Source: Candidatus Omnitrophota bacterium (GTDB lineage: Bacteria > Omnitrophota > Gorgyraeia > Gygaellales > UBA12090). From it: a DNA stretch of 64,000 bases. The notes beneath the pieces were generated by a model. It did no database searches and was not told the origin of the DNA. It saw nothing but the letters and a program-made list of their open reading frames with translations. This document shows positions 37,040 through 61,201 of this stretch, piece by piece. The stretch spans positions 6,432 through 70,431 of the forward strand of contig JAUSCZ010000035.1 of the NCBI GenBank assembly GCA_030674475.1. The letters are read 5' to 3'. Each line of letters opens with the position of its first letter. Within the stretch, counting starts at the first letter, position 1. The position numbers and the translations under genes were made by a program.

Positions 37040-38404
37040 TTACTTTACGCCGATAGAAACTGACTCCTTCGGCAAAATATAAAAGGCGTCGGGAATCTTA
37101 AATTTAGGCAGGAATTTACTTAAATATTTTTCCAGCGCCAAAGGGTTTAGGCGCTGGTTTTTTTTTATTTTTATGAAGGCAACCGGACGAAATCCATATT
37201 CCTGATTGGGATGCGCCACAACATAAGCATCTTCAATTAACGCGCACTTACGCAAAAAATATTCTATCTCTTCAGGAAAGATGTTTTCTCCCCCTGAGAT
37301 AAACATGGCGTCTTTCCTCCCCCTTACTGTCAGAAATCCTCCTCTTCTAAGAGAGCCCATATCCCCGGTATGAAACCAGCCATCTTTATCAACTGCCGGC
37401 TTTAACGCTCCGTTTTTGATATAACCTTGAAAAAGCGTCTTGCCGGCGGCCAGGATTTCTCCGTCATAAGCCACGCGTATTTTGCGATAACGCAGCACTT
37501 TCGCGCCTTTATGATTAAGCGTGGCGGTTGTTGCTACTTGAGAAGCCATTTCCGTGAGCCCATATGATACATAGAGAGGAACTCCTCGGCTGCGCGCCTC
37601 TGCCCTGAGTTGTTCTGGCATAGCGCTCCCTCCTACAAGCAGCGCTTTAAGTTTCTTGAGCGCGCTACACCCTTTTGCCGCCAAAGCTCTTTGTAACTGC
37701 GCGGCCACCAAGGAAACATGGGTAATATGACACTTACTAATTACCGAACAGACATCTTTATTTTTAGAAATAACCACTGCCGCGCCTTTTAAAAAACAAC
37801 GAAATAGAATACTCAGGCCGGACACATGATAAAGCGGCAGAGATAAAAGCCAGCGGTCAGAAGACTTAACCGGGATATTTCCATCGGAGCCAAGCGCGCT
37901 GTAATAATGGTTGGCGAAGGTATGTTGAACAGCTTTGGGCAGGGCGCGGCTGCCTGAGGTAAAAAGTATTGTTGCCGGTTGATTAAACGCGTAAAGGACA
38001 CTTTTAGATAAAGTTAGCGGCGCGTTTTTTATAACTATGCTTTCTAAAGAAATTACGTCAACCGGAAGGTTTTTATACGCTTCAGGTTCTCTAGCGAAAA
38101 GAGTTTTTCCGCGAACATTTTTTATTTGCTCACCAAGCGCCTCCGGCGGAAGCCTATCGCTTAAAAGGCAGGCCACCGCGCCAATGCGCCACAAGGCAAA
38201 TAAGGTAATGATGTATTCAGGATTTGCCGGAGCCGATATACAAACCCTCTCTTTTTCCTTAATGCCTATATGCTTGAGTTTTTGGGCGCAATAGTCTATG
38301 GCGCGGTCAAAGGCTTTATAAGTAAGCGTTTCGCTATCAGATATAATCGCGCCCCGCCAGCCATATTTAAGCGCGTTTATTTTTATAGGACAGCGAATCT
38401 GCAT
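37040..38404 (-). CDS. menE: o-Succinylbenzoate--CoA ligase
   Basis: AMP-binding motifs (TSGSRALPKAV, YGLTEM, GDMG). Position inside the men cluster. Confidence 0.75.
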   Translation of the reverse strand: MQIRCPIKINALKYGWRGAIISDSETLTYKAFDRAIDYCAQKLKHIGIKEKERVCISAPANPEYIITLFALWRIGAVACLLSDRLPPEALGEQIKNVRGKTLFAREPEAYKNLPVDVISLESIVIKNAPLTLSKSVLYAFNQPATILFTSGSRALPKAVQHTFANHYYSALGSDGNIPVKSSDRWLLSLPLYHVSGLSILFRCFLKGAAVVISKNKDVCSVISKCHITHVSLVAAQLQRALAAKGCSALKKLKALLVGGSAMPEQLRAEARSRGVPLYVSYGLTEMASQVATTATLNHKGAKVLRYRKIRVAYDGEILAAGKTLFQGYIKNGALKPAVDKDGWFHTGDMGSLRRGGFLTVRGRKDAMFISGGENIFPEEIEYFLRKCALIEDAYVVAHPNQEYGFRPVAFIKIKKNQRLNPLALEKYLSKFLPKFKIPDAFYILPKESVSIGVK

Positions 38405-38421
38405 AATTTTTTTGGGGGGGG

Positions 38422-39504
38422 TTAAGCTTGACTTAAGTTTTCGAAATTAATATCGCCCTCACTTAGAGGTTTAGGAGACACTACTATCTTTCCTTCTTGA
38501 ATCACAAAAGGCGCCTTTAATAAATCTTTTTCAAAATATTTTAAGGTATCAATCCCTGCCCGGCAAGTGCCGCCCAGCCCCGCGGCAAGCTGAATTAGAG
38601 AAAACAATCCGATTCCGGATTCAAACGAAGAACTCACCACAATTTGTATTCCGTTTTTCTTGGCATCATTTGCCATCACAAGCGCTTTCCTTACGCCTCC
38701 CAACAGAGTAGGTTTTAACACCCAGGCCCTCACCCCTTCACGCATCTTAACAGCCTTACCTCCTTGTGAAATAAGCGATTCATCTAAGGCGGAGACGATG
38801 CCTGTCTTATGAAAAAAAACAGAAGTCTTTTCTATGTCTTTAAAAGGCTCTTCAAGGTATTCAATCTGCTTGGGGTCAATCGCGCCCGCGAAATACAGGG
38901 CGTCATCGTAACTCCATCTTTGATTCACGTCTAAATGTATCCGGGCGCGATTATTCAACAATTTCAAAACCGCTTTGACACGCTCAACATCTTTTTTTAC
39001 CGCGCCGCCGGCCTTTACTTTTATTGATTGAAACCCTTTTCTAAGCAAATCATTAACCGCCTGGCCAAGAGGCTCTTCCTCTTGAAGCAGTCCATTAACC
39101 ATAATGGCAGAACTTGGAGATTCTCCCCAAAGATAAGACAGCGGCTTTTGCAGTTTACGCGCTAACGCGCTATAAAGCGCTGTTTCCACCCCAAAACGGA
39201 CTTCGGGGATAAGGGGACATAAACCTATCTGACGAAACAAACCGTCTAATTCATCAGGAAATTCTTGAATGGCTAAACCCTTAGTGAATTCCTTAAGATT
39301 ATTGAGACATTCTTCTATTTCTCCACCCTCCAATCCTTTGAGAGGAGCAATCTCGCCAAATCCCTGCCATTGGTCATCCAGGGTCAAAGAAAGAATAATC
39401 CCTTCCCGTAAACGCGTTTGGCTTCTGCCTCGAATTACAATGGGAGATTTTAAGGGCAAGGCATAGCGATAGATTTTAAAGGAGGTAACTTTCACAGTAT
39501 CCAA
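38422..39504 (-). CDS. menC: o-Succinylbenzoate synthase (enolase superfamily)
   Basis: Enolase-superfamily metal-binding segments (KVKAGG..., HLDVNQRW, EEP). Position inside the men cluster. Confidence 0.7.
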   Translation of the reverse strand: MDTVKVTSFKIYRYALPLKSPIVIRGRSQTRLREGIILSLTLDDQWQGFGEIAPLKGLEGGEIEECLNNLKEFTKGLAIQEFPDELDGLFRQIGLCPLIPEVRFGVETALYSALARKLQKPLSYLWGESPSSAIMVNGLLQEEEPLGQAVNDLLRKGFQSIKVKAGGAVKKDVERVKAVLKLLNNRARIHLDVNQRWSYDDALYFAGAIDPKQIEYLEEPFKDIEKTSVFFHKTGIVSALDESLISQGGKAVKMREGVRAWVLKPTLLGGVRKALVMANDAKKNGIQIVVSSSFESGIGLFSLIQLAAGLGGTCRAGIDTLKYFEKDLLKAPFVIQEGKIVVSPKPLSEGDINFENLSQA

Positions 39505-40373
39505 CCCAGGGAAAAAAGAATACTGTAAATAATCAGGAGTTTTCCGGTAAAGCCTAACACCCGGTTAAGCGAAGGGCCGTCAGTTTTGGTAAGAATGACT
39601 TGAATGCTGGGAATAGCAATGAGGATTATACTTGAGACAAATACTATCTTGAAATGCTCCTTGGTGATAAGATAAAGGTAAACAGGGATTGCCGCCGCGA
39701 AAAGAATCGAGCCTATGTATTCGCACTGAGCGAAGCCCCTGCCAAAACGCACGGCCAGGGTGGATTTGCCGGTTAGGGCGTCAGTAGATATATCCCGGTA
39801 ATTATTGACGCAGAGCATTGAGACTGAAAGAGCGCCCGCTCCTAATCCCGCGAGGATTGCCGCGTTATTCCAAGCGAGTGATTGCGTATAATAAGTCCCG
39901 GCCACGGCAACCGGCCCAAAGAAGATAAAGACAAAAAGCTCACCCAGGCCTATATACCCCAGCGGTTTTGGGCCAGCGGTATAAAGAATTCCTGAGGCGA
40001 TAGAAAAAATACCGATAACCACAATAGGCACCCCACCCCTGTACACCAAATAGGCTGATGCCAAAATAGCGGCCGCGAAAACAAAAATAAAACTTCTCTT
40101 TACTGCCTGAGGGCTGAGCAGGCCTGCCTGGGTTACCCTGGTCGGCCCAATACGCTCGGAGGTATCCGCTCCTTTCTTAAAATCAAAATAGTCGTTGGCA
40201 AGATTCGTCCCGATCTGAATCAAAAGCGCGCACAAAAGGCATAAAGACGCGCTTAAGAAATGGGATACCCCATCCCCGTAGGCCATTGCCGCGCCTATGA
40301 CTACCGGTGCCCCTGCCGCGGGCAAAGTCTTTAGCCGACAAGCCATCTGCCAGGCTTTTAATCTACTATTCAT
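39492..40373 (-). CDS. menA: 1,4-dihydroxy-2-naphthoate polyprenyltransferase (UbiA family)
   Basis: Polytopic UbiA-family protein with NDYFD motif. Confidence 0.75.
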   Translation of the reverse strand: MNSRLKAWQMACRLKTLPAAGAPVVIGAAMAYGDGVSHFLSASLCLLCALLIQIGTNLANDYFDFKKGADTSERIGPTRVTQAGLLSPQAVKRSFIFVFAAAILASAYLVYRGGVPIVVIGIFSIASGILYTAGPKPLGYIGLGELFVFIFFGPVAVAGTYYTQSLAWNNAAILAGLGAGALSVSMLCVNNYRDISTDALTGKSTLAVRFGRGFAQCEYIGSILFAAAIPVYLYLITKEHFKIVFVSSIILIAIPSIQVILTKTDGPSLNRVLGFTGKLLIIYSILFSLGWIL

Positions 40374-40394
40374 TATGCGGATATTGTAACTATC

Positions 40395-41222
40395 TTACGG
40401 CCGTTTGGGGAAGCGCGAAAAGTTGGGTTTTCTTTTTTCCACAAAGGCATCGCGGCCTTCCTGGCCTTCTTCGGTCATATAAAAAAGCATCGTGGTATTT
40501 CCGGCTAATTCTTGCAGGCCGGCCTGGCCATCGCAGTCAGCGTTTAAGGCTGCCTTAAGGCAGCGTAGGGCAATCGGAGAATTCGCCAGAATCTCCTTAC
40601 ACCACTTGAGAGTTTCTTTTTCCAGGTCTTTTAAGGTTACGACCTTGTTCACTAAGCCCATTTGAAGCGCTTCCCGGGCGTTATACTTGCGGCACAAAAA
40701 CCAGATTTCCCGCGCCTTCTTCTGCCCCACCACCCGCGCCAGATAAGAAGCACCATAGCCGCCGTCAAATGAGCCCACCTTTGGCCCGGTTTGACCGAAA
40801 ATAGCGTTATCCGCGGCAATCGTAAGGTCTGCCATAAGAGCCAAGATATTTCCACCGCCAATGGCATAACCGGCCACCATGGCAATAATCGGTTTGGGGC
40901 AGGTCCTCATCTGGCGCTGAAAATCAAGCACATTCAGCCGCTGGACGCCTTTTCCATCCTTGTATCCGGCATCGCCGCGTATCTTTTGGTCTCCGCCTGA
41001 ACAAAAAGCGCGCCTTCCCTTGCCAGTGAGAATTATTACCCCGATTTTCTCATCATTACGCGCGTCATCCAGGGCCTTAGACATTTCAATCACAGTTAGA
41101 GGACGAAAGGCGTTTAACGCCTCGGGGCGGTTAATGGTAATTTTGGCAATTCCCTCTGTCTTTTCATATTCAATATCGCTAAAGCTTAGCGTTTTTATCC
41201 ACTTAATCTTTTGATTCTTCAT
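40395..41222 (-). CDS. menB: 1,4-dihydroxy-2-naphthoyl-CoA synthase (crotonase fold)
   Basis: Crotonase fold with a strongly conserved MenB sequence ([12 protein letters not shown]...[13 protein letters not shown]). Confidence 0.85.
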
Positions 41223-42997
41223 TTCTTAGGCCTCCCCCTCAAACAAGCTCGTATCGTGTTTTGCGAAGTTTGCAGCGCCTTATAATTTTCATCGCGATTA
41301 GCTTCAATTTCAATAATAGTTGTTCCCTTTTTTTCTAAAGCGCCGCGGTAAGTGTCAGCGAATTCCCGCGCTGTTGTCACCCTGGCGTAGGCGATCTGAA
41401 ACATTCCTGCCGCCAGCTCAAAGCTAAAGGTATGCGGCGCGGCAAAATATTTTTCAAAAACACTCGGAAACGCGGCAATCGGCAAAAAAGAAAAAATCCC
41501 GCCTCCGCGATCATTGATTACAATAATAACCAGCGGATATTTAAGTTCTTTTGCCAGCGCCAAAGAATTAAGGTCATGGAGAAAGGCTAAATCCCCGATA
41601 AGCACGACACAAGGCTTACCTAAACCATTAGTGAACCCTATCGCGGAAGCAATGGTACCATCAATACCGCTTGAGCCGCGGTTCGCACCCACGCGGCATA
41701 AATTCTTATTTACCCCGGCAAACATATCCATTATTCGAATAGACATACTGTTGGCCAAGAATATCCCTGTTTCCTGGGAAGGGAGCGTGCTTATACGCTG
41801 TGCCAAAACGCCGGGAGTAAGAGACGCGGCCCCATTTATCTCAGCTAAAAGACATTGCTGAACGCGTTCGGATGCCTTTTTGAGCTGGGCGGTAAAATTA
41901 TTCCTTTTGCGCTGTTTTAAAAACTGCTTGATAGCCCCGCAAAAATAGGAAACTGAACATTCAATCCGCGTTGTTACGCGATGCAGGGGGTCATTACGCA
42001 AAGGATGATTAAGCACGGTAATATAAGAAATGAGGGTAATCTTTTTAATAAACTCATACCAGCGGCTCGAAGTCAATCGTCCTCCCAGATGAAGAACGCC
42101 ATCTGGCTTATAGCGCGCCAAGAGCGCGGGCTCAAGCAAGAGTTGGTCAAAATAATGAATTACCATTTCGTCATTACTTTTTAGGCGCAATCCAGAGGTT
42201 ATATCGGCGAAAACCGGCCATTGCAGGATACGCGCGAGGATAAGGACATTTTTCTCTTCCTCTTCATTTCTTAATTTCCCTACAGCGATAATTCCCCGTT
42301 TGATCGCGCTAAGTTCCTGAGCAAGGTTTTTAAGCTCCTCTGATGATAAGCTTTTTTCATAAAACGTATAGCGCGTCCACGGCAAGGAATTTTTTAACCA
42401 CCGGCTAAGAGGTTTTAAGTTCCCCGGGGTAAATCCTTTTTCCGGTATCGGAGCCAGCGGCTCGCGAAACATACAATTTATATGCACCGGGCCGGGGAAG
42501 TTGGCGCGCGCGCGATAGACTGCCTGATCAATAGTAGTTACTACCGTTTCTAAGGGTATCTCTTTCGTGGGGCAGGGCAGGTCAAAGAAAAAACGCGCGT
42601 AATCGCCAAAAATTTTTACCTGGTCAATGGTTTGATTAGCTCCGGTGTTCCGCAATTCAGGGGGACGATCAGCAGTCAGAATAATCAAGGGAAGTTTTTT
42701 CTTGGATGCCTCAATAATCGCGGGGAAAAAATTGGCCACCGCCGTGCCTGAGGTCGCGATAAGACAAGCTGGCTTACCACTTGAGGCAGCATACCCTAAG
42801 GCATAATAGGCCAGGCCCCGCTCATCAAAATGAATAAAGCTCTTCGCGCGCCTATTCTCGGCAACCGCGACCACCAGCGGCCCGGAACGCGAACCCGGAG
42901 CAATACAAAAATGCTCCACCCCCAAGCGTATCAGCTCCTCAATAATCAGCTTTCCCCAGAGATGGTTTATGTTTTTTGTATCGCGTAGATCAAACAT
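41219..42997 (-). CDS. menD: SEPHCHC synthase (TPP-dependent)
   Basis: ThDP-binding fold ([12 protein letters not shown]), MenD-like length and position. Confidence 0.8.
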
Positions 42998-44383
42998 TTA
43001 TCGCTCGCTAAAAAGGTTAAGGAAAATGCTCTTTTTCTGCTCTATCTCCTGCCATTCCTCATCCGCGGTTGAGCCCTCCACAATACCCGCGCCAGCGTAT
43101 AAATTGACGCGGCTGCCCTGCATCAGCGCGCAACGAAGGGCAACGGCGAAATCAACTGAATCATAGCCTATATGCCCTATCGGCCCGGCATACCAGCCGC
43201 GCTCAAATGGCTCTAATTTCGCGATTGCCTTTAGCGCCTGAGCCCTGGGCATCCCGCCTACCGCGGGTGTTGGATGAAGCACGGTTAAAATCTGGGCGTC
43301 ATCTACTGTGTCCCTCAATGTCCCTTGGAAACGGGTAATTAAATGATGCGCGCTTGAGGCCTTTACCACCGAGGGCACGGCATCCGCCTGCCAAGACACG
43401 CATAATTTTTTGAAGGCGTCTTTAATCGCCTCAACCACGATTTTATGTTCCCGCGCGTCTTTGGGTGAATCAAGCAGTATTTTTTCAAAATGAGCGTCCT
43501 CATCAGTTGTTTCTCCCCGCGGCCTTGTCCCCGCAAGGGCCTCGCTTTCGATAGCAACGCCTTGACGCTTAAGCAGGCGCTCCGGTGACGCGCCAAAAAA
43601 GGCACAGTCATCTTGCGGCTGGAAATAATAGTGGAAAGAGCCTTGCGCCTGTTGAGTAAGTTTTTTAAATACCGCAAGGGGATCAACCTTTGAAACAAGC
43701 TCAATAGATGTCTTTTGGGCCAAGACTATTTTTTGATAGATAGTTTTACCTGAAGGCTGAATATGCTCTTTGAATAGTTTTTGCCATTCTTGGCTATTGG
43801 GAGACACGGAAAAAGACTTAATCTTCGGAATAGAAACATCCGCCAGGCTCAGAGAAAATAAAATTTCATCTAAAGCGCGCAGGTAATCCTTAATCAAGGA
43901 TTCAGTAACATCTTGGGTTACTATATTACAGGCAAAGAAACATTCACCTTTTCTCTTTACAATTTCGAAGCGAGGAAGTAAAAAACAGTAGGCGCCGAAT
44001 GCCTTCCATTCTTGCGCCGTCTTTCTCGTGCCGGCTATGTCTCTATTAACTTCAGGCGGATAGAAATCCATTCCTCCATAATAACGGATATCACCGCCTG
44101 CCGAAAGCCTTTGGGAAATAGCGTTAAAAGGCGCATTGTAAGTATCAATCGCGCTACCTCGCGTTATATCCGCGGTTCCAATTCCCGCCATCCGGAAAGA
44201 ATTATCCCTGCTTGCCCAATACAGCTTAACCTGGCTTGTTTGAGCGTCCAGCCAATCTAAGCAATTAACTCGCGGACAAGGCACCTCAAAGCGCAAGATA
44301 CTTTTTTGCTTATCACGATATGCGCCTCGCGAAAGCCTAAGGATGTCTTGGGCTATTCTCTCTTTAACTTCCTGAAATGACAT
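42998..44383 (-). CDS. menF: Isochorismate synthase
   Basis: Chorismate-binding C-terminal domain (GTLHPTPAVGG, AGAGIVEGS). Confidence 0.8.
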   Translation of the reverse strand: MSFQEVKERIAQDILRLSRGAYRDKQKSILRFEVPCPRVNCLDWLDAQTSQVKLYWASRDNSFRMAGIGTADITRGSAIDTYNAPFNAISQRLSAGGDIRYYGGMDFYPPEVNRDIAGTRKTAQEWKAFGAYCFLLPRFEIVKRKGECFFACNIVTQDVTESLIKDYLRALDEILFSLSLADVSIPKIKSFSVSPNSQEWQKLFKEHIQPSGKTIYQKIVLAQKTSIELVSKVDPLAVFKKLTQQAQGSFHYYFQPQDDCAFFGASPERLLKRQGVAIESEALAGTRPRGETTDEDAHFEKILLDSPKDAREHKIVVEAIKDAFKKLCVSWQADAVPSVVKASSAHHLITRFQGTLRDTVDDAQILTVLHPTPAVGGMPRAQALKAIAKLEPFERGWYAGPIGHIGYDSVDFAVALRCALMQGSRVNLYAGAGIVEGSTADEEWQEIEQKKSIFLNLFSER

Positions 44384-48307: not shown

Positions 48308-48511
48308 TTATTTTACGTGAGAAACTTTTCTAAGGCTGAGGCCATACTTTTTTGCTGCTTCTTCAGATTCACTATGAATGGCGGCAAGCTTTTCCTTGCT
48401 AGTCATATTTTTGTGTTCTTCGTAAATTTTTTCCTGAATCTCATGTATTTCTCTCATTGGTTTAGGTTCTTTAAACATTCTCCACCACCTCCTGAGGGGA
48501 ACAGATTTCAA
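48308..48511 (-). CDS. Small hypothetical protein, candidate partner of the upstream PIN protein; likely true start MFKEPKPM
   Basis: Follows and overlaps the 3' end of the PIN gene. Charged helical 55-67 aa product. Confidence 0.35.
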   Translation of the reverse strand: MKSVPLRRWWRMFKEPKPMREIHEIQEKIYEEHKNMTSKEKLAAIHSESEEAAKKYGLSLRKVSHVK

Positions 48512-48974
48512 TTGGCTTATATCCCATTAGGGCATTTATCCCTGAAACTTCCCGTTTTGTCTTAAGTTTTACGATATGGGTAAAATTCCAGCTCACTATC
48601 GCATCCAAATCATTTACGGAAGCGATAGCAATATGAAACGCGTCATCTTCATATTTGGCAGGAATTATGCCTTTTTCTATGTATTCTCTGGCTAAAGTCT
48701 CCGCGCTATCATCAAAAATAAGCTCTTCAGGATTTATCTTCTTTATACAATCCCTTAACTGTATTGCTTTAGGTTCAGGCGCCTTATTTATCTCTAACAT
48801 AACGATTTGAGAAATAAACACGTTATATTTACCACTCCTTATTTCTTCAAAAAGTCTAAGGGTAATTTCCCTTTCCAGCAAAACATCGTCGGCAATGGCA
48901 AAATTAAATACAGATGTATCAAAATAGAGTTTTGGTATTTTCATAAATGTGCCCTCGATAATAAAATACCACAA
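48471..48974 (-). CDS. PIN-domain nuclease; likely true start MKIPKLYFDTSVFN
   Basis: PIN-like acidic residues (YFDTSVF, QIVMLE, DDAFHIAIASVNDLDAIVSWNFTHI). Inserted between cbiL and cbiF. Confidence 0.6.
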   Translation of the reverse strand: MWYFIIEGTFMKIPKLYFDTSVFNFAIADDVLLEREITLRLFEEIRSGKYNVFISQIVMLEINKAPEPKAIQLRDCIKKINPEELIFDDSAETLAREYIEKGIIPAKYEDDAFHIAIASVNDLDAIVSWNFTHIVKLKTKREVSGINALMGYKPIEICSPQEVVENV

Positions 48975-54398: not shown

Positions 54399-55376
54399 TT
54401 AAAAGGTATACACACAGGTAAAGACTACGGAATCATTGGCATCGGTATTGGTGCCGGTCAGTGTCCTCTGGTAACCAAGAAGCATTTGTATTTTCTCGCT
54501 TGACCAGCCTATCCCCGGGGATAGGTTTAAATACATTACATCCGTGGCAGGAGTCTTTTCTCCGCTTTGCTCTTTATCAGCCTGTAAAAAACCATTAAGT
54601 TCAAAGCTGAGATTAAATCCTGCCGCCATAAAATACTCCATACCGAAGTCATAATTTAAATACCTGCCATAGCCGGTCTTTACCGTGTCTATCTTCCTTT
54701 CCTGAGGAACACTATATATAAAATCCGCGTGGGTTACAAAAGGTTTGAGTTTTTTGCTCAAGTTTATCCCTGCCCCTAAATCATACGAGCCGCCTCCGGA
54801 GCTCGCGCCCATCAAATCAGTGCCCAGTTTATCAGGGTCGGCCTTTTGATATTTTCCCGTAGGCACTTTTAACTGAAATATTCCCGTAAGGTGCGGCAGC
54901 CATCTTTCTTCTTCTAAGGCGCAATAACGCAAGAAAAGATAACTATCCCCCAAACCATTGGTATGCGCCTTTCTATCGCTTTGTGTGGCATAATTTTCCT
55001 GATATACGGCTTGGGCGTCTATTTCTAACCTTTCACTAAGGCCATACTGGGCGAATAACTGCTCTTGGAACTGGAACTTCCTATCGTCAGCCGGCAAAGA
55101 GCCATAATGGCTGTCGGAATTAAATGTGCCGCGGCTGCGGTTATAGAATAGAAACGTCTGGACTACTAATTTTCCTTGGTCACACAAAGGAGCGGTCCAG
55201 GTAGTAAGCGGACCGGCGGAAACGGGATTCCATTCATCAGCTTCTTTACCTTCCTTATGGCTGCGGTTATCGGAAGCCGCACCATCGCCCTCTGGCTTAT
55301 GAGCGAAAGATATATCCGACAGAGCGCACAAAACAAACTGTAGCAAAACATAAACTATTATTTTCCTTCTACACAT
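54399..55376 (-). CDS. Outer-membrane beta-barrel protein (signal peptide, C-terminal aromatic residue), first gene after the riboswitch
   Basis: Signal peptide, alternating amphipathic beta-strand pattern, terminal ...CVYTF. Resembles transporter barrels of the MetA-pathway/OmpP1 type; the family assignment is tentative. Confidence 0.45.
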   Translation of the reverse strand: MCRRKIIVYVLLQFVLCALSDISFAHKPEGDGAASDNRSHKEGKEADEWNPVSAGPLTTWTAPLCDQGKLVVQTFLFYNRSRGTFNSDSHYGSLPADDRKFQFQEQLFAQYGLSERLEIDAQAVYQENYATQSDRKAHTNGLGDSYLFLRYCALEEERWLPHLTGIFQLKVPTGKYQKADPDKLGTDLMGASSGGGSYDLGAGINLSKKLKPFVTHADFIYSVPQERKIDTVKTGYGRYLNYDFGMEYFMAAGFNLSFELNGFLQADKEQSGEKTPATDVMYLNLSPGIGWSSEKIQMLLGYQRTLTGTNTDANDSVVFTCVYTF

Positions 55377-55439
55377 AGCATTTCTCCTTTTCTCGGAAGT
55401 TTTGGGAATAAGAGGTTTCCTGACTTAAGACATCTAACC

Positions 55440-55570
55440 TACTTGCCATCCTTCCCATTCCGACGAATCGTCAGAACAGTGGACTTATTGGCTTTCGTTT
55501 CTCTTACAGTTACCGAATAGTAGAGGATTTCCACCTCTTTCCACAACCTTATTCCCGTTAAAATTATTTT
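55440..55570 (-). promoter_or_regulatory. Candidate cobalamin (AdoCbl) riboswitch aptamer
   Basis: The minus-strand transcript contains ACGGGAAUAAGG, GGUGGAAAUCC, a B12-box-like GUCCACUG and GGGAAGG, in the canonical order. It lies in the 266-nt gap between cbiC and the barrel/cbiMNQO genes. Confidence 0.6.
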
Positions 55571-56310: not shown

Positions 56311-56994
56311 CTACAGTGTCGTACCTATGTTTTCTCTTATCTTATCCGCGACAATATCAGCTATGCGGCTGTCTTCGCCTAAGTTTTTGGTATAGATAAA
56401 ACGGACCTCCGGATACTTCTTCTTCTCCTGCTCAATTATTTCCGGGATATCCCGACTGACGTGATTGCCCACAAAAAGAAAAAAAGGAATAATAATTATC
56501 CTGCGGCAACCGGCCTTAGCCAGCTTTTCTAAGCTCTGGCCTAAATCAGGTTTGGCCAACTGTAAATAAGCCGGATATATTTTGGATAATCCCAAAGTCC
56601 GTTTTAAACCATTTATAATCTCCGGGATCAAGGCATTGGCCTTCTTTAATCTGCTGCCATGGCCCAGGACCACAACCCCGGTTTGTTTATCCGAGAAGGT
56701 TTTACTTCTCGCTTTAGCCACGGGGATATCTTTTCTTAAATAGCTGCCATGTTCGCTGATCAAGCGATAAATACGGTCAACTGTTTTTCTTTGGTGTATC
56801 CAGCCGCAGTCTTTGCAGGACCAGATCTTTTTATTAAGCCTTGAAGAATAGACATAGCGGCCCAGGCCTTCTTCTTGGCAGGGGTAGAATGGGCAGTAGC
56901 AAAAGGTGCAGTCTTCCAAATCCTCGTGGCAGGGGAAATAACTACAGGCATTATTTACCCTGAGTAAAGTCGAAGGGTTTGTTCTTTTAATCAT
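56311..56994 (-). CDS. cbiX: Fusion of an N-terminal Cys-rich (zinc-finger-like) domain with a short CbiX-type sirohydrochlorin cobaltochelatase
   Basis: N-terminus has 9 Cys in about 60 aa (CSYFPCHEDLEDCTFCYCPFYPC...CKDCGW). The C-terminal about 120 aa has the CbiX signature VVLGHGSR...IIIPFFLFVGNHV. Confidence 0.65.
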   Translation of the reverse strand: MIKRTNPSTLLRVNNACSYFPCHEDLEDCTFCYCPFYPCQEEGLGRYVYSSRLNKKIWSCKDCGWIHQRKTVDRIYRLISEHGSYLRKDIPVAKARSKTFSDKQTGVVVLGHGSRLKKANALIPEIINGLKRTLGLSKIYPAYLQLAKPDLGQSLEKLAKAGCRRIIIIPFFLFVGNHVSRDIPEIIEQEKKKYPEVRFIYTKNLGEDSRIADIVADKIRENIGTTL

Positions 56995-58454
56995 CGGCTC
57001 TCGTGATAGCTTTTACAGTTTCTTATAAAATTCCGAACCAGGTTAAGGTTTGAGGCGAAATGCAGATGGGCGTAGCTGGCCAAGACATTTTTGTAAATTA
57101 AGCCGTCATAAAAAATCTTATCTTTATGCTTTGTTACCTTGTAAGCAAACTCAATGCCCTTTGGTAAAGCATCAAGATATGACCAGTGAAAGGTATGGGC
57201 GCGAATTTTATCACCTGCCCTGCTTAAGATATTATTTTTGACGACCTCAATATCAATATACCCTAATGCCTGCAATTTGCGCGCCATTATCGCGGAACAC
57301 TTAAAAATACCAGACATGGGAAAGCTTTTTTTCTTAAAATTAACGAGACGCTTCACCAAATACATTAAACCTCCACATTCGGCATATATTGGTAACCCCT
57401 CCTCCGCGCGCTGATGCGTCTCCTGTCTAAGGCTTATATTCTTGGCTAACCTCTCGGCAAAAAGCTCCGGGTAGCCGCCGCCGATATACATACCGTCTAT
57501 CCCTTGGGGTAAAGATTTATCCTTAAGCGGACTGAATTCCACCAGACGCGCTCCTAAAGCTTCCAGAATATCCAGATTATCCTGGTAATAGAAATTAAAG
57601 GCCTTATCCCTGGCAATGGCGATGGTAACTTGTATTGCGTCAGTTGAATTTAATATCTTGTCATTCCCGCGAAAGCGGGAATCCAACTGTATAGATTCCC
57701 CGGTCAAGCCGGGGAATGACAAATTAACCGCCGCTAATCCCGGCGCCTGTTTGCTTATTTTTATTATGCGCCGCAGGTCTATATTTTTCTCCACCAAAAC
57801 GCGTAATTTAGCATATAAACCTGTATCCAGTTTTTTCTCTCCGGCCGGCACCAGGCCCAGGTGCCTCTCGGGAAGCCTTATCCCCGCATCCTTGGGCAAA
57901 AACCCCAATACTGGAATTCTCGTCTTTTTTTCAATTGCCGATTTGGTAAAATGATAATGGTTTGGGCTTCCTATATTATTCAGGATTACCCCGGACAGAT
58001 TCACCTTTTTATCAAACTCTTTACAGCCTAAGACTATTGCCGCCGCGCTCCGGGAAAACGAGGCGGCGTTTAAGACCAGGATCACCGGCGCGCCCAATAT
58101 CTTGGCTAAATGCGCGGTTGAGCCGTATTCCGTATCCCGGAAACCGTCATAAAGCCCCATCACCCCTTCTATAACCGAGATATCCGCTCCCTTGGCGTTT
58201 CTGGTAAATAACTCTAAGATTGCCCCCGGCTGGATCAGCCAGGAGTCCAGATTCCGGCTGATCCTGGCGCAGACCGCGCTATGCTGCATCGGGTCCAGAT
58301 AATCCGGCCCAGCCTTAAAAGGCTGAACCCGCAAGCCCATCTTGCGCAAGGCCAGCATCACCCCTAAAGTTAAGGTGGTCTTTCCGCTTCCGCTTTGGGT
58401 AGCGGCAAAGACTATCCGAGGACACCCGTCGGGTGTCTTTTTTAAGGTTTTCAT
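56991..58454 (-). CDS. cbiA: Cobyrinate a,c-diamide synthase with an in-frame family-D palindromic insertion between the ATPase and glutaminase domains
   Basis: N-terminal P-loop VFAATQSGSGKTT. C-terminal GATase (CGGLMYL). Residues GLTGESIQLDSRFRGNDKILNSTDA are encoded by the palindrome pair at 57655-57722. Confidence 0.8.
   Translation of the reverse strand: MKTLKKTPDGCPRIVFAATQSGSGKTTLTLGVMLALRKMGLRVQPFKAGPDYLDPMQHSAVCARISRNLDSWLIQPGAILELFTRNAKGADISVIEGVMGLYDGFRDTEYGSTAHLAKILGAPVILVLNAASFSRSAAAIVLGCKEFDKKVNLSGVILNNIGSPNHYHFTKSAIEKKTRIPVLGFLPKDAGIRLPERHLGLVPAGEKKLDTGLYAKLRVLVEKNIDLRRIIKISKQAPGLAAVNLSFPGLTGESIQLDSRFRGNDKILNSTDAIQVTIAIARDKAFNFYYQDNLDILEALGARLVEFSPLKDKSLPQGIDGMYIGGGYPELFAERLAKNISLRQETHQRAEEGLPIYAECGGLMYLVKRLVNFKKKSFPMSGIFKCSAIMARKLQALGYIDIEVVKNNILSRAGDKIRAHTFHWSYLDALPKGIEFAYKVTKHKDKIFYDGLIYKNVLASYAHLHFASNLNLVRNFIRNCKSYHESR
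57655..57722. repeat. Family-D double-hairpin palindromic element inside cbiA
   Basis: gtcATTCCCGC-GAAA-GCGGGAATcc...gATTCCCCGG-TCAA-GCCGGGGAATgac. A related copy lies at 28200-28265. Confidence 0.7.
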
Positions 58455-59791
58455 AATTGGTAATTATAGACCAGGTTATCCCAGCCTTCTTCCCGGAAAC
58501 AGTATTTTTCTTTACCCTCGGCAATCAGCTTAAAGGCATGCCTAATCACCGCTTTGTAAAACTCACAGAATACGGCCTTCTGAAACATATTCCCCATAGA
58601 ACCCAGCTCCGCAGGGCAGGGCGAACCGCAGATATTACGGTAAAGGCAGGCATCACATTCGGCAATCTTCTCCACAAAACGGGAACGGATCTTCTGAAAA
58701 GGCGCCGACTGCATTGCCTCTTTTATCCCGGTCTTGAAGATATTACCTCCGGATGAATTCTTCAAGCCGATAAACTCTCCGCAAGGGATCATCTCTCCCG
58801 ATGCGGTAACCGTCAGGAAACAGCGGCCTCCTCCGCAAGGCGAAATATCGCACATCATCCTGCGGGCCTCGGGGGCAACTATGCCTAAGATAGTGTTGCT
58901 GAAATTAGCCACGACTATCCTGCGGCCGGAGCTTTGAGACAACTCTATCGCGGTATCTACGGCTTTCAGGAAATTCTTAGTCATCAGTTTTTCATCCGGC
59001 TTAGTTTTCAGGCTATGTTTCTGGGTCAATCTTACCGGATTAAACAACACGCAAGGGACCTTTTTGCTATGCAGGAACTTCACCAATTTATCTAATGAAT
59101 GAATGTTGAACTTGGTCATTGTGGAGATAACATTTAAACCCTGGTATCCATCAAACCAGTCAATTGCCCGAATCACCGCGTCAAAATTCCCTCCCTTAGC
59201 CGATGGCCGAGTCTTGTTATTTAAAGAACGCAGAGGAGCATCCAAGGAAATCCCTACCCCCACCCGGTATTCTTTCAAGAATTCCACATCCTCTTTTTCT
59301 AATAACAGACCATTGGTCTGCAGGCCGAAGCTAAACTTGTCCTTAAATTCCCTGATTGCCGAAAAGACCGCCTCTTTAGCCAAGAGCGGCTCGCTGGCAT
59401 GAAAGATAATGACCGGCTTTCTCTTTTTATCCCGAAAATAATCCAGCACCTTATTCAAGGCCTGGCGAAGTTGTTCCTTAGTCATTTGAGCGCCGTGTTT
59501 ACGCATCTTGGCCGGGACATAGCAATAAGGGCAGTTGGAATTACAGCGGTCAGTCGGGTCAATATAGACCGCGGAAAGCTCCGCGCTAAACCTGAACTGT
59601 TTCATTTCCCCATCTAAGCTGTCCTTTTGCTTTTGGTAAAGGGATAAAACCTCGCGGGACACAAAGGGCGCGCCTTGCGCGTCTTTAGCCGTCATCGCCC
59701 AAAAGACATTGTCCGCGTCAATCAAGACCGTATTAGCCTGATCAATACTATGGACAGCCAAGCCATTCACCTTTTCATCTGAATTAGACAT
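58451..59791 (-). CDS. Radical SAM enzyme with C-terminal SPASM domain and an N-terminal extension of about 75 aa
   Basis: CNSNCPYC (CxxxCxxC) radical-SAM cluster motif. C-terminal Cys-rich SPASM-like region (CDISPCGGGRC...CGEF...CDACLYRNICGSPCP). GGAG Shine-Dalgarno upstream. Confidence 0.7.
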   Translation of the reverse strand: MSNSDEKVNGLAVHSIDQANTVLIDADNVFWAMTAKDAQGAPFVSREVLSLYQKQKDSLDGEMKQFRFSAELSAVYIDPTDRCNSNCPYCYVPAKMRKHGAQMTKEQLRQALNKVLDYFRDKKRKPVIIFHASEPLLAKEAVFSAIREFKDKFSFGLQTNGLLLEKEDVEFLKEYRVGVGISLDAPLRSLNNKTRPSAKGGNFDAVIRAIDWFDGYQGLNVISTMTKFNIHSLDKLVKFLHSKKVPCVLFNPVRLTQKHSLKTKPDEKLMTKNFLKAVDTAIELSQSSGRRIVVANFSNTILGIVAPEARRMMCDISPCGGGRCFLTVTASGEMIPCGEFIGLKNSSGGNIFKTGIKEAMQSAPFQKIRSRFVEKIAECDACLYRNICGSPCPAELGSMGNMFQKAVFCEFYKAVIRHAFKLIAEGKEKYCFREEGWDNLVYNYQL

Positions 59792-59819
59792 AATTTAAAT
59801 CTCCAAATTAGTATAATCT

Positions 59820-60070
59820 ACCTATTGTAACGGAGCTGGGGGTTTTCGCAGCGAATGTCGGTTTTAGCCAAAGCAGCTTTCGGATTTTCGGGAATCCCGA
59901 GGCCGAAGCCGTAAGGCGAGGCAAACTCGGGACGGCGAGGATGTTTGAGCTGTTTTTGCTAGAGCAAAAACAGCGAGTTCCGCAGCCGCCGAAAATACGA
60001 AAGAACTTTGGCGGCCCCGCCAAAGGCGGGGCAAAACCGACCTGAGCGAGAAAACCCTCAGCTCCGTTAT
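59820..60070. mobile_element. MITE-like nonautonomous element (about 250 bp) with about 20-bp terminal inverted repeats and flanking TA
   Basis: Left end acggagctgggggttttc..., right end ...gaaaaccctcagctccgt. There are longer imperfect inverted-repeat arms and a central palindrome gctgtttttgctagagcaaaaacagc. TA dinucleotides flank both ends. No coding capacity. Confidence 0.55.
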
Positions 60071-60078
60071 AATATATT

Positions 60079-60237
60079 CTACAATAACGTCTTCTCCTTC
60101 GGCACATCACCATACATCACAAAATGCGACAGACCGTTGGCGGTCTTGGCGCATTTGAGCCGGTAGGACATCTCCCCGGAAACCGGCTTTGACTTCTGTT
60201 TCTTGTTCTCCTTGCCGCTTTCTACCTTCTTTGCCAT
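60079..60237 (-). CDS. 52-aa hypothetical peptide (not in the ORF track), translationally coupled downstream of cbiB
   Basis: ATG at 60237 preceded by GGAGGTGA Shine-Dalgarno. Translation: MAKKVESGKENKKQKSKPVSGEMSYRLKCAKTANGLSHFVMYGDVPKEKTLL. Sits upstream of the rSAM/SPASM gene, separated from it by the MITE. Confidence 0.4.
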   Translation of the reverse strand: MAKKVESGKENKKQKSKPVSGEMSYRLKCAKTANGLSHFVMYGDVPKEKTLL

Positions 60238-60256
60238 AGCTCTACTCACCTCCTTT

Positions 60257-61201
60257 TTAATATTTTAACATCCAAGTTAAACCTATTCCTGATAACAATG
60301 CCAGGAACGAACTAGCATACACAATCCTGATACTTTCTAAGATATGCCTGGCCTCTAATGGGCAGGCGCCATCCCCGATATACGGCTCTACCTTGGCCGA
60401 GGAATTATAAAAATTCACTCCCCCCAGCCGCACCCCCAATGCCCCGGCCATTGCCGCCTCCGGCAGGCCGCTGTTGGGACTGGCGTTTTTCCGGCCATCC
60501 CTTAAGGCCAGGCGAAAGGCCGAAGAGCCGTCCTGGCCGCAGACCCAGCTTCCTAAAGACAAAAATAAAACCGACAAACGCGCCGGGATATAATTCGCAA
60601 AATCATCCAGCCTGGCCGAGGCCCAGCCAAAATCAATATATCTTTCATTCTTATAACCAACCATTGAATCCAGGGTACTTACTGCCTTATAGGCCAGGGC
60701 CAAAGGCGCGCCGCCTATAAAGGTATAGAACAGCGGCGAGAGTATTCCGTCCACAAAATTTTCCCCCACAGTCTCAACCGCGGCCCGGGCCACCTCTTTC
60801 TCATCCAGATTTCCGGTATCCCTGCCCACTACTTGAGAAAGTAAGCTCCTAGCCTGGGCCAGGTCATTGTCCTTTAGCCTGGAATATACCCGCATTGTAT
60901 GGGCCTTTAAATCCTTGATCGCGATTGCGGTATAAATAAAGAACACCTCTAAGGCCGCGCCGAAGAAAGGATTAAGCTGATAACCTGCCTTTATTATTCC
61001 CCAAACCAGGAAATAAGTCAATCCAATAACCAAAACCACCAAGATAACCCCGGCTATCTTTAAATTAAAGATATACCTGCGCAGAAAATCCTCCAGATGC
61101 CGGACAAGAAATCCGATTATCCTTACCGGATGGGGAAACCAGCGCGGATCACCAAAAATAATATCCAAAAAATAGGCCAAAATTATATTAATTCCCGGCA
61201 T
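60257..61201 (-). CDS. cbiB: Adenosylcobinamide-phosphate synthase
   Basis: CobD/CbiB family polytopic protein (FGDPRWFPHPVR N-terminus). Confidence 0.8.
   Translation of the reverse strand: MPGINIILAYFLDIIFGDPRWFPHPVRIIGFLVRHLEDFLRRYIFNLKIAGVILVVLVIGLTYFLVWGIIKAGYQLNPFFGAALEVFFIYTAIAIKDLKAHTMRVYSRLKDNDLAQARSLLSQVVGRDTGNLDEKEVARAAVETVGENFVDGILSPLFYTFIGGAPLALAYKAVSTLDSMVGYKNERYIDFGWASARLDDFANYIPARLSVLFLSLGSWVCGQDGSSAFRLALRDGRKNASPNSGLPEAAMAGALGVRLGGVNFYNSSAKVEPYIGDGACPLEARHILESIRIVYASSFLALLSGIGLTWMLKY

Follow-up and report, generated by a model that had tools for sequence, protein, structure and literature searches.

A probable peptide–maturase pair of the CbpA/CbpB family within an anaerobic cobalamin operon of Candidatus Omnitrophota

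The cbpA–cbpB locus

The window analysed here, a stretch of 64,000 nucleotides from a Candidatus Omnitrophota bacterium (assembly GCA_030674475.1, contig JAUSCZ010000035.1, positions 6,432 to 70,431 of the forward strand), contains in its anaerobic cobalamin operon a pair of adjoining genes on the reverse strand: cbpA, coding for a 52-aa peptide, and downstream of it cbpB, coding for a radical S-adenosylmethionine (radical-SAM) enzyme with a SPASM domain. A first-pass annotation of the same DNA had described a 446-aa radical-SAM/SPASM protein with a CxxxCxxC motif, an N-terminal extension and a Cys-rich C-terminal domain, together with a 52-codon open reading frame (ORF) preceded by a strong Shine–Dalgarno sequence. 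This description stands, on the enzyme side by its ORF, its motif and its Pfam matches (eight invariant and one nearly invariant Cys accompany the SPASM domain), and on the peptide side by direct reading of the DNA, which returns the sequence then quoted. The features of the pair, with the evidence for each in brackets, are the following.

58451–59791, reverse strand: cbpB, radical-SAM/SPASM peptide maturase by family, 446 aa (TIGR04163, Pfam, AlphaFold2 model, fold matches)
59522–59545, reverse strand: radical-SAM cluster motif C83-x3-C87-x2-C90, DRCNSNCPYCY (sequence; conservation in 82 homologues)
58565–58852, reverse strand: SPASM or auxiliary Fe–S region with C314, C319, C324, C337, C379, C382, C388, C392 and C409 (Pfam, Cys conservation, alignment to the CteB SPASM domain)
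59576–59791, reverse strand: N-terminal extension of CbpB, residues 1–72, putative peptide-docking domain (secondary structure of the AlphaFold2 model)
60079–60237, reverse strand: gene for a CbpA-like precursor peptide of 52 aa, counted from the ATG; the coordinates include the stop codon (conserved ORF, TIGR04164 match)
60247–60254, reverse strand: Shine–Dalgarno sequence AGGAGGTG, 9 nt upstream of the cbpA ATG (read from the sequence)
60100–60171, reverse strand: conserved CbpA core block, residues 23–46, MSYRLKCAKTANGLSHFVMYGDVP (alignment of 72–76 orthologues)

The enzyme and its family

Some 80 residues precede the CxxxCxxC motif of CbpB, and the three Cys of this motif (C83, C87 and C90) are each invariant in the alignment of 82 homologues on which the conservation figures for the enzyme rest. 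Pfam recognises the Radical_SAM domain at residues 79–239 (70 bits, above cutoff) and the SPASM domain at residues 319–382 (28.4 bits, cutoff 21.5). In the C-terminal part, C314, C319, C337, C379, C382, C388, C392 and C409 are invariant, and C324, kept in at least 90% of the sequences, is nearly so. By analogy with anSME and CteB, this set would suffice for two fully Cys-ligated auxiliary [4Fe–4S] clusters.

On the NCBIfam model TIGR04163 (‘peptide-modifying radical SAM enzyme CbpB’, rSAM_cobopep), CbpB scores 515.1 bits (E 1.2e-154), where the curated equivalog cutoff is 375 bits, and the match spans residues 15–429 of the protein and positions 5–425 of the 428 in the profile. By this score the enzyme belongs fully to the curated CbpB family, whose name ‘cobopep’ derives from its location within cobalamin biosynthesis clusters. 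Relatives are numerous, with 2,014 at E ≤ 1e-30 in a large protein collection and one in at least 595 genomes according to a scan of species-representative genomes. Those nearest to CbpB (92% identity) were found in metagenome-assembled genomes (MAGs) of Candidatus Omnitrophota and are already named CbpB by the NCBI pipeline; the best species-representative match, locus L001 (92%), belongs to an Omnitrophica groundwater MAG.

The next NCBIfam model after TIGR04163 is that of PapB (NF047865, ranthipeptide maturase), with 123.9 bits against a cutoff of 340. Below it, and each short of its own cutoff, come DynA (117 against 450), anSME (TIGR03942, 110 against 349), HxsB (102 against 370), YhhB (NF041707, 100.7 against 445), GrrM/OscB (TIGR04261, 91.7 against 310), QhpD (90 against 453), the SCIFF maturase (TIGR03974, 79 against 425), AhbD (62.4 against 500), AhbC (60.5 against 650) and NirJ1 (60.2 against 650). 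Clustering with AhbD/NirJ or with anSME, which the first-pass annotation had considered as a possible outcome, was not found in these hidden Markov model searches.

Structure of CbpB

A first AlphaFold model, computed from a 16-sequence alignment, was discarded, its predicted local distance difference test score (pLDDT) being 57 and that of its SPASM region below 50. The AlphaFold2 model computed from 82 sequences reaches a mean pLDDT of 90 and a predicted template modelling score (pTM) of 0.91. Residues 1–72 of this model comprise the β-strands 11–15, 20–25 and 30–36 and a long helix (46–68), after which come the partial TIM barrel of the radical-SAM domain and then the SPASM region. Four residues of the extension, N28, F30, W31 and Y52, are invariant. 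The sheet and its single helix fall short of a full winged helix–turn–helix, and the extension could represent a peptide-docking domain in reduced form.

Comparison of the model with the PDB by Foldseek returned, in this order, CteB (E 1e-18), anSME (4e-18), ChlB (8e-17), TigE, SuiB and SkfB, with viperin-type enzymes ranking far lower than the peptide maturases; the alignments to CteB and SuiB span the whole length. A profile search of the PDB sequences agrees with this order. In this search, CbpB aligns to CteB over residues 70–423, with the core and the SPASM domain matched, and the N-terminal extension stays outside the alignment. The nearest solved relatives (CteB, ChlB, anSME, TigE and SuiB) are all peptide or protein maturases.

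The peptide gene and its conservation

The start codon of cbpA lies 19 nt from the stop codon of cbiB. A mechanical ORF list begins the same frame at the GTG at 60249 (56 aa), and this GTG is within the Shine–Dalgarno sequence. Homologues were sought in 80 related loci by searching, with the window peptide, all small ORFs on the same strand in the 1.5 kb that precede the enzyme gene. Matches were obtained in 75 of these loci (E 2e-31 to 3e-7), and one more homologue, at L048, was added by tblastn. Three loci end at a contig edge just upstream of the enzyme gene and are not assessable; of the 77 assessable species loci, 76 have a peptide homologue immediately ahead of the enzyme gene, and L010 is the sole one truly without the gene. 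The peptide gene precedes the enzyme gene in every case, in one copy per locus, at a distance ranging from –9 to 454 nt. A profile of the peptide retrieved 714 clustered homologous proteins of 45–55 aa from public data, called ‘hypothetical protein’ where they are named at all. The peptide has hundreds of homologues, and these accompany the radical-SAM gene in the presence or absence of a neighbouring cbiB. Neither of the two outcomes that the first-pass annotation had named as refuting its proposal was thus observed.

The N-terminal 15–30 residues of CbpA are Lys-rich and vary in sequence and length, and the C-terminal block of about 25 residues is almost invariant: [IV][SA][YF][RH][LM]KCAKTANGL[ST]H[FY]VMYGDVP, with SYRLKCAKTANGLSHFVMYGD as the core consensus. 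The C, N-G-L, H and M-Y-G-D positions are 100% conserved in the 72 sequences of the long type. This distribution departs from the division into a basic N-terminal leader and a HFVMYGD core that had been proposed initially, as it is the N-terminus that varies, and the conserved residues 23–46 include both the Cys-containing and the HFVMYGD stretches.

At the nucleotide level, the fraction of non-majority bases in the core is 0.107, 0.063 and 0.452 at codon positions 1, 2 and 3, respectively, and the codon differences, summed over all pairwise comparisons, are 28,269 synonymous versus 12,597 non-synonymous. Since the variation is mostly at third codon positions, the cbpA ORF is a protein-coding gene under purifying selection, and sequence comparison in this way establishes cbpA as real and conserved. 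A Pfam search with the window peptide gave no match. The only NCBIfam family that it matches is TIGR04164 (‘modified peptide precursor CbpA’, cobo_pep), with 12.4–12.6 bits (E 0.07–0.08); the same family is matched by 32 of 45 orthologues, and no other family consistently.

Cobalamin context

Two neighbours delimit the pair.

60257–61201, reverse strand: cbiB, adenosylcobinamide-phosphate synthase, upstream operon neighbour (PF03186, TIGR00380)
56991–58454, reverse strand: cbiA/cobB, cobyrinic acid a,c-diamide synthase (NF002204, 522 bits)

The ATG of cbiA overlaps the stop codon of cbpB (ATGA, 58451–58454), which suggests translational coupling. The pair is contained in a co-directional anaerobic cobalamin supercluster of ~18 kb, whose order is cobS (partial)–cobD–cobQ–cbiB–cbpA–cbpB–cbiA–cbiX (with a zf-like domain)–cbiC, followed by a cobalamin riboswitch, a porin-like gene, cbiM–cbiQ–cbiO–cbiD, four tetrapyrrole methylase genes and cbiG.

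This context recurs. A cob, cbi or btu marker is found within ~6 kb of cbpB, always on the same strand, in 70 of the 80 related loci, and three further loci have CbiD or corrin methylases adjoining according to Pfam, which brings the loci in cobalamin context to 73 of 80. The position of the pair varies: between cbiB and cbiA, after cobD, between cobU and cobT, after cbiMNQO, adjoining btuF or cobA, or adjoining a PF01902 gene. The loci belong to at least six bacterial phyla, among them Omnitrophota, Nitrospirota, Planctomycetota and Bacillota. At L018, an adenosylcobalamin riboswitch (1538–1667) is located 74 nt upstream of cbpA (1741–1911). Such recurrence of co-directional cob genes at varied positions fits selection for co-expression and not a one-off insertion of a natural-product cluster; the pair is a conserved member of the B12 regulon and not a chance insertion into the cbi operon, insertion having been one of the two possibilities raised in the first-pass annotation.

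Across the examined loci, no recurrent protease or exporter was found beside the pair, and the pattern of a conserved leader and a variable core, accompanied by a leader protease or exporter, that marks ribosomally synthesised and post-translationally modified peptides (RiPPs) does not apply to CbpA/CbpB. The PF01902 gene (Dph6-like ATP pyrophosphatase, ‘Diphthami_syn_2’) adjoins cbpAB in 14 of the 80 loci, within cobalamin or salvage clusters (e.g. L081 11223–11912 and L082 7065–7739), and some of these loci also carry an Asn-synthase-like gene and a second radical-SAM gene (239 aa). A role as constant third component was rejected, since the window and most of the loci lack PF01902.

Other features of the window

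The spacer between the two genes holds a structured element.

59823–60074, strand not assigned: palindromic element of 252 bp with 25-nt terminal inverted repeats, between cbpA and cbpB (inverted repeats; absent from L001)

The terminal repeats are 92% complementary, and the element has nested hairpins; the folding energy of the spacer RNA, which contains a terminator-like hairpin at 60006–60025, is –137 kcal/mol (z = –10.6). In L001, the 92%-identical relative, the element is missing and the two genes are 67 nt apart. No second copy occurs in the window. A metagenome scan gave six contigs, each with a single match to one terminal repeat, and none of the six carries a paired inverted copy. With one copy in the window and isolated matches in the metagenome, the assignment of the spacer to a dispersed miniature inverted-repeat transposable element is unproven, and no Rfam family covers the spacer.

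Within cbiA, a small palindromic repeat at 57658–57722 (TTGTCATTCCC...GGGAATGACAA, with two internal hairpins) is in frame in an inter-domain linker and gives ~21 extra residues (...GESIQLDSRFRGNDKILNSTD...) relative to L001. A weak, sub-threshold Rfam hit to ‘FtrB’ at 57637–57742 is explained by this repeat and was not retained as a small RNA. The CbiX-type chelatase (56311–56994, reverse strand) carries a fused N-terminal Cys-rich ‘zf-like’ domain (PF04071), and among NCBIfam models it most resembles the small CfbA/CbiX(S) nickel or cobalt chelatases, with scores below their cutoffs. The cobalamin riboswitch (RF00174, 56.7 bits, 55394–55567, reverse strand) is downstream of cbiC and upstream of the porin-like ORF (54399–55376) and cbiM–cbiQ–cbiO; it splits the supercluster into an upstream unit with cbpAB and a riboswitch-controlled unit for cobalt uptake and the corrin ring. 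Amid the corrin methylase genes (cbiE/L/F/H-type) lies an ORF of 167 aa (48471–48974, reverse strand) without Pfam match at E ≤ 1e-5, which could represent a divergent protein of the CbiT or CbiJ kind or another component. Directly downstream of the supercluster is a menaquinone cluster (37040–44383, reverse strand; MenF, MenD, MenB, MenA, MenC and MenE-like by Pfam), with genes for PrmA and rubrerythrin in between.

Comparison with known systems

The closest counterpart is the ‘cobalamin operon peptide’ system of NCBIfam itself, CbpA/CbpB (TIGR04164/TIGR04163), defined by bioinformatics only. The window shares with it the enzyme at equivalog level, the small peptide gene upstream and the cobalamin operon; it differs by the peptides, since those scored from the window clade stay below the CbpA cutoff. 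The statement of the first-pass annotation that the locus would be new, whichever way it was read, is therefore not supported: the system is already curated in NCBIfam/TIGRFAMs, and the enzyme bears its NCBI name in the 92%-identical MAGs.

Among enzymes of solved structure, the best relative of CbpB is the thioether-forming SCIFF maturase CteB (PDB 5WGG, 5WHY), with a profile E of 1.5e-22 over residues 70–423 and a fold E of 1e-18 (query TM-score 0.69). The two have in common the radical-SAM core, a SPASM domain with two clusters and an additional N-terminal domain, although identity is only ~18–20% and the N-terminal domain of CbpB is shorter (three strands and one helix) and unaligned by sequence to the CteB RiPP recognition element (RRE). 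The SCIFF peptide is short, highly conserved and housekeeping-like, without dedicated protease or exporter. CbpA resembles it in being short, highly conserved and without dedicated protease or exporter, but has one conserved Cys where SCIFF has six. Two other thioether-forming enzymes, PapB (the top non-self NCBIfam match) and QhpD, are both far below cutoff. They link Cys to Asp or Glu, a chemistry with which the invariant residues Cys29 and Asp44 of CbpA would be compatible; unlike a PapB-type substrate, CbpA lacks repeated CxxxD motifs.

The second-best solved relative, ChlB (E 6e-20 by profile, 8e-17 by fold), matches CbpB by profile mainly over the N-terminal half of the radical-SAM core. 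It is cited in PMC12912966 as a three-residue cyclophane synthase (Ruel et al. 2025). A likeness to the 3-CyFE/triceptide systems is also seen in the CbpA core, which contains aromatic-x-x motifs (YRL, HFV, FVM and YGD) that are not family-specific. As for anSME (PDB 4K36–4K39), the radical-SAM and SPASM fold is the same and provides the best local superposition (root-mean-square deviation ~3.2 Å, target TM-score 0.81–0.83), but anSME has no N-terminal extension and CbpA no sulfatase-type motif. Finally, AhbD, AhbC and NirJ share with CbpB the SPASM architecture and a gene context of tetrapyrrole pathways, but not the cognate peptide gene.

Weighing the explanations

We consider it likely that the window encodes a CbpA/CbpB system in which a ribosomal peptide of 52 aa is served by a dedicated radical-SAM/SPASM maturase, both genes being integral to the anaerobic cobalamin operon. 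A RiPP-like pair of peptide and maturase, as the first-pass annotation had it, is supported in kind by the TIGR04163 score and by nearest solved relatives that are maturases.

Several observations weigh against this explanation. CbpA is below the TIGR04164 cutoff of 35 bits, and nine variants scored individually on that model reach 27 bits at best, none attaining the cutoff. A short variant (...NGLSHYVPxEKKxLV) without MYGD occurs at L072, L075, L078 and L080, and in L080 a Gly replaces the core Cys, with a CC pair further upstream; such natural variation can help to tell which residues are modified. Residues 1–80 of CbpB show no Pfam PqqD/RRE similarity even at E ≤ 10; a recognised RRE is thus not supported by sequence, and the model offers a three-stranded sheet with a single helix. 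The 252-bp hairpin between the genes might affect their co-expression here. No experimental data on any member of the family were found in the literature searched, where the terms CbpA/CbpB, TIGR04163, cobopep and SPASM with cobalamin biosynthesis returned nothing relevant. As regards the low scores, the alignments place the window peptide among the CbpA homologues, in a large clade that escapes the curated model; as the current model misses this MYGD-type clade, its peptides are unnamed in public genomes. The idea that the curated model, of 25 positions, was seeded from the short ‘...SHYVPxEKK’ variant was not confirmed, since such peptides score 17–20 bits and the best score (27) belongs to the long type.

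Other explanations were considered for the same locus. Because AhbD/NirJ-type SPASM enzymes acting on tetrapyrroles exist and the pair is embedded strictly in cob operons, CbpB could itself be a tetrapyrrole-tailoring enzyme of the AhbD, AhbC or NirJ kind, working on a corrinoid intermediate with the peptide as accessory or scaffold. Weak matches of the AhbD/NirJ type are indeed present, and no protease or exporter was found nearby. This is nevertheless unlikely: the AhbD, AhbC and NirJ1 models give 60–62 bits (cutoffs 500–650), versus 90–124 for peptide maturase models, the best folds all belong to peptide or protein maturases, the conserved peptide gene accompanies the enzyme gene in all but one of the assessable loci (76/77), and we know of no unassigned step of the canonical anaerobic cobalamin pathway that needs a radical-SAM/SPASM enzyme. 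Slightly less probable still is an ordinary secreted RiPP, antimicrobial or signal, whose genes lie in the cbi operon by happenstance. A small precursor gene followed by a radical-SAM/SPASM maturase is the typical architecture of such systems, and the closest characterised relatives of CbpB make ranthipeptides, sactipeptides or triceptides. However, happenstance accords poorly with a cobalamin context in 73 of 80 loci, across phyla and at differing operon positions, or with the L018 pair directly behind a B12 riboswitch. Furthermore, the CbpA core is nearly invariant across phyla, in contrast to the hypervariable cores of antimicrobial RiPPs, and neither transporter nor leader peptidase is consistently associated.

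It is very unlikely that CbpB, in the manner of anSME, modifies another protein (a cobalamin-pathway enzyme or a corrinoid protein) and that CbpA is not its substrate. The presence of anSME among the closest folds and the failure to detect an RRE in CbpB speak for such a target. Yet the anSME model gives 110 bits against its cutoff of 349, the adjacency of peptide and enzyme is obligate with no other constant neighbour, and the anSME target motif, C/S-x-P/A-x-R, is absent from CbpA. That the 52-codon ORF arose by chance in a non-coding upstream region might be argued from its small size, its want of a Pfam match and its sub-cutoff score on the curated CbpA model, but is effectively refuted by the comparative data, namely conservation in 76 of 77 assessable loci, the excess of synonymous differences at third codon positions and the 714 homologous called proteins, in addition to a strong Shine–Dalgarno sequence at the right spacing.

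Proposed chemistry and role

For the peptide–maturase pair favoured here, the following mechanism is proposed. CbpB would dock the invariant block of ~25 residues of CbpA, possibly through its small N-terminal β-sheet domain. SAM would be reductively cleaved at the C83/C87/C90 cluster, and the 5′-deoxyadenosyl radical so produced would take a hydrogen from a residue of the CbpA core. The two SPASM auxiliary clusters would then help to finish an oxidative intramolecular cross-link in the peptide. The conserved core block would probably serve as both recognition and modification region.

CbpB is about equally distant from thioether-forming enzymes (PapB, CteB), from cyclophane- or C–C-forming ones (DynA, YhhB, ChlB) and from the Cβ-oxidising anSME, a further point against any precise version of this proposal. 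Since its nearest relatives span these three chemistries, the reaction cannot be assigned from sequence. The product that we favour, tentatively, would be a thioether between the invariant Cys29 and a carbon of Thr32 or Asp44. The main alternative, held with somewhat less confidence, would be a three-residue cyclophane on His38, Phe39 or Tyr42. Both proposals must be treated with caution in view of the Gly-for-Cys replacement in L080 and of the variants without MYGD.

An extremely conserved core is the mark of cofactor precursors such as PqqA and MftA and of SCIFF, antimicrobial RiPPs being less conserved. The comparable conservation of the CbpA core, combined with the cob context, points to a possible function within the cell that is connected with cobalt or corrinoids. 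Likewise, given the hyper-conserved core, the lack of protease or exporter and the locus behind a B12 riboswitch, modified CbpA is more likely to serve inside the cell, as a housekeeping factor connected with the metabolism of cobalt or corrinoids, than to be a secreted antibiotic. That it is, more specifically, an unrecognised component dedicated to anaerobic cobamide biosynthesis or to the handling of cobalt and corrinoids is a possibility that falls short of being probable. It might then be a cofactor of peptide origin, a metallochaperone for cobalt or a carrier of corrinoids, making use of the invariant Cys, His, Met, Tyr and Asp.

Significance

The CbpA/CbpB pair is already catalogued and no discovery in itself, but it is a well-defined orphan system. 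A practical outcome is the CbpA core consensus SYRLKCAKTANGLSHFVMYGD for a clade that the current CbpA model misses. What makes the system worthy of attention is that a near-invariant peptide and its radical-SAM maturase have been retained in the B12 operons of at least six bacterial phyla. If the product acts in cobalt or corrinoid metabolism, the anaerobic cobalamin pathway, regarded as ‘complete’, would gain a peptide-derived component, and a ribosomal-peptide step would be added to the B12 pathway of Omnitrophota, Nitrospirota, Planctomycetota and other anaerobes.

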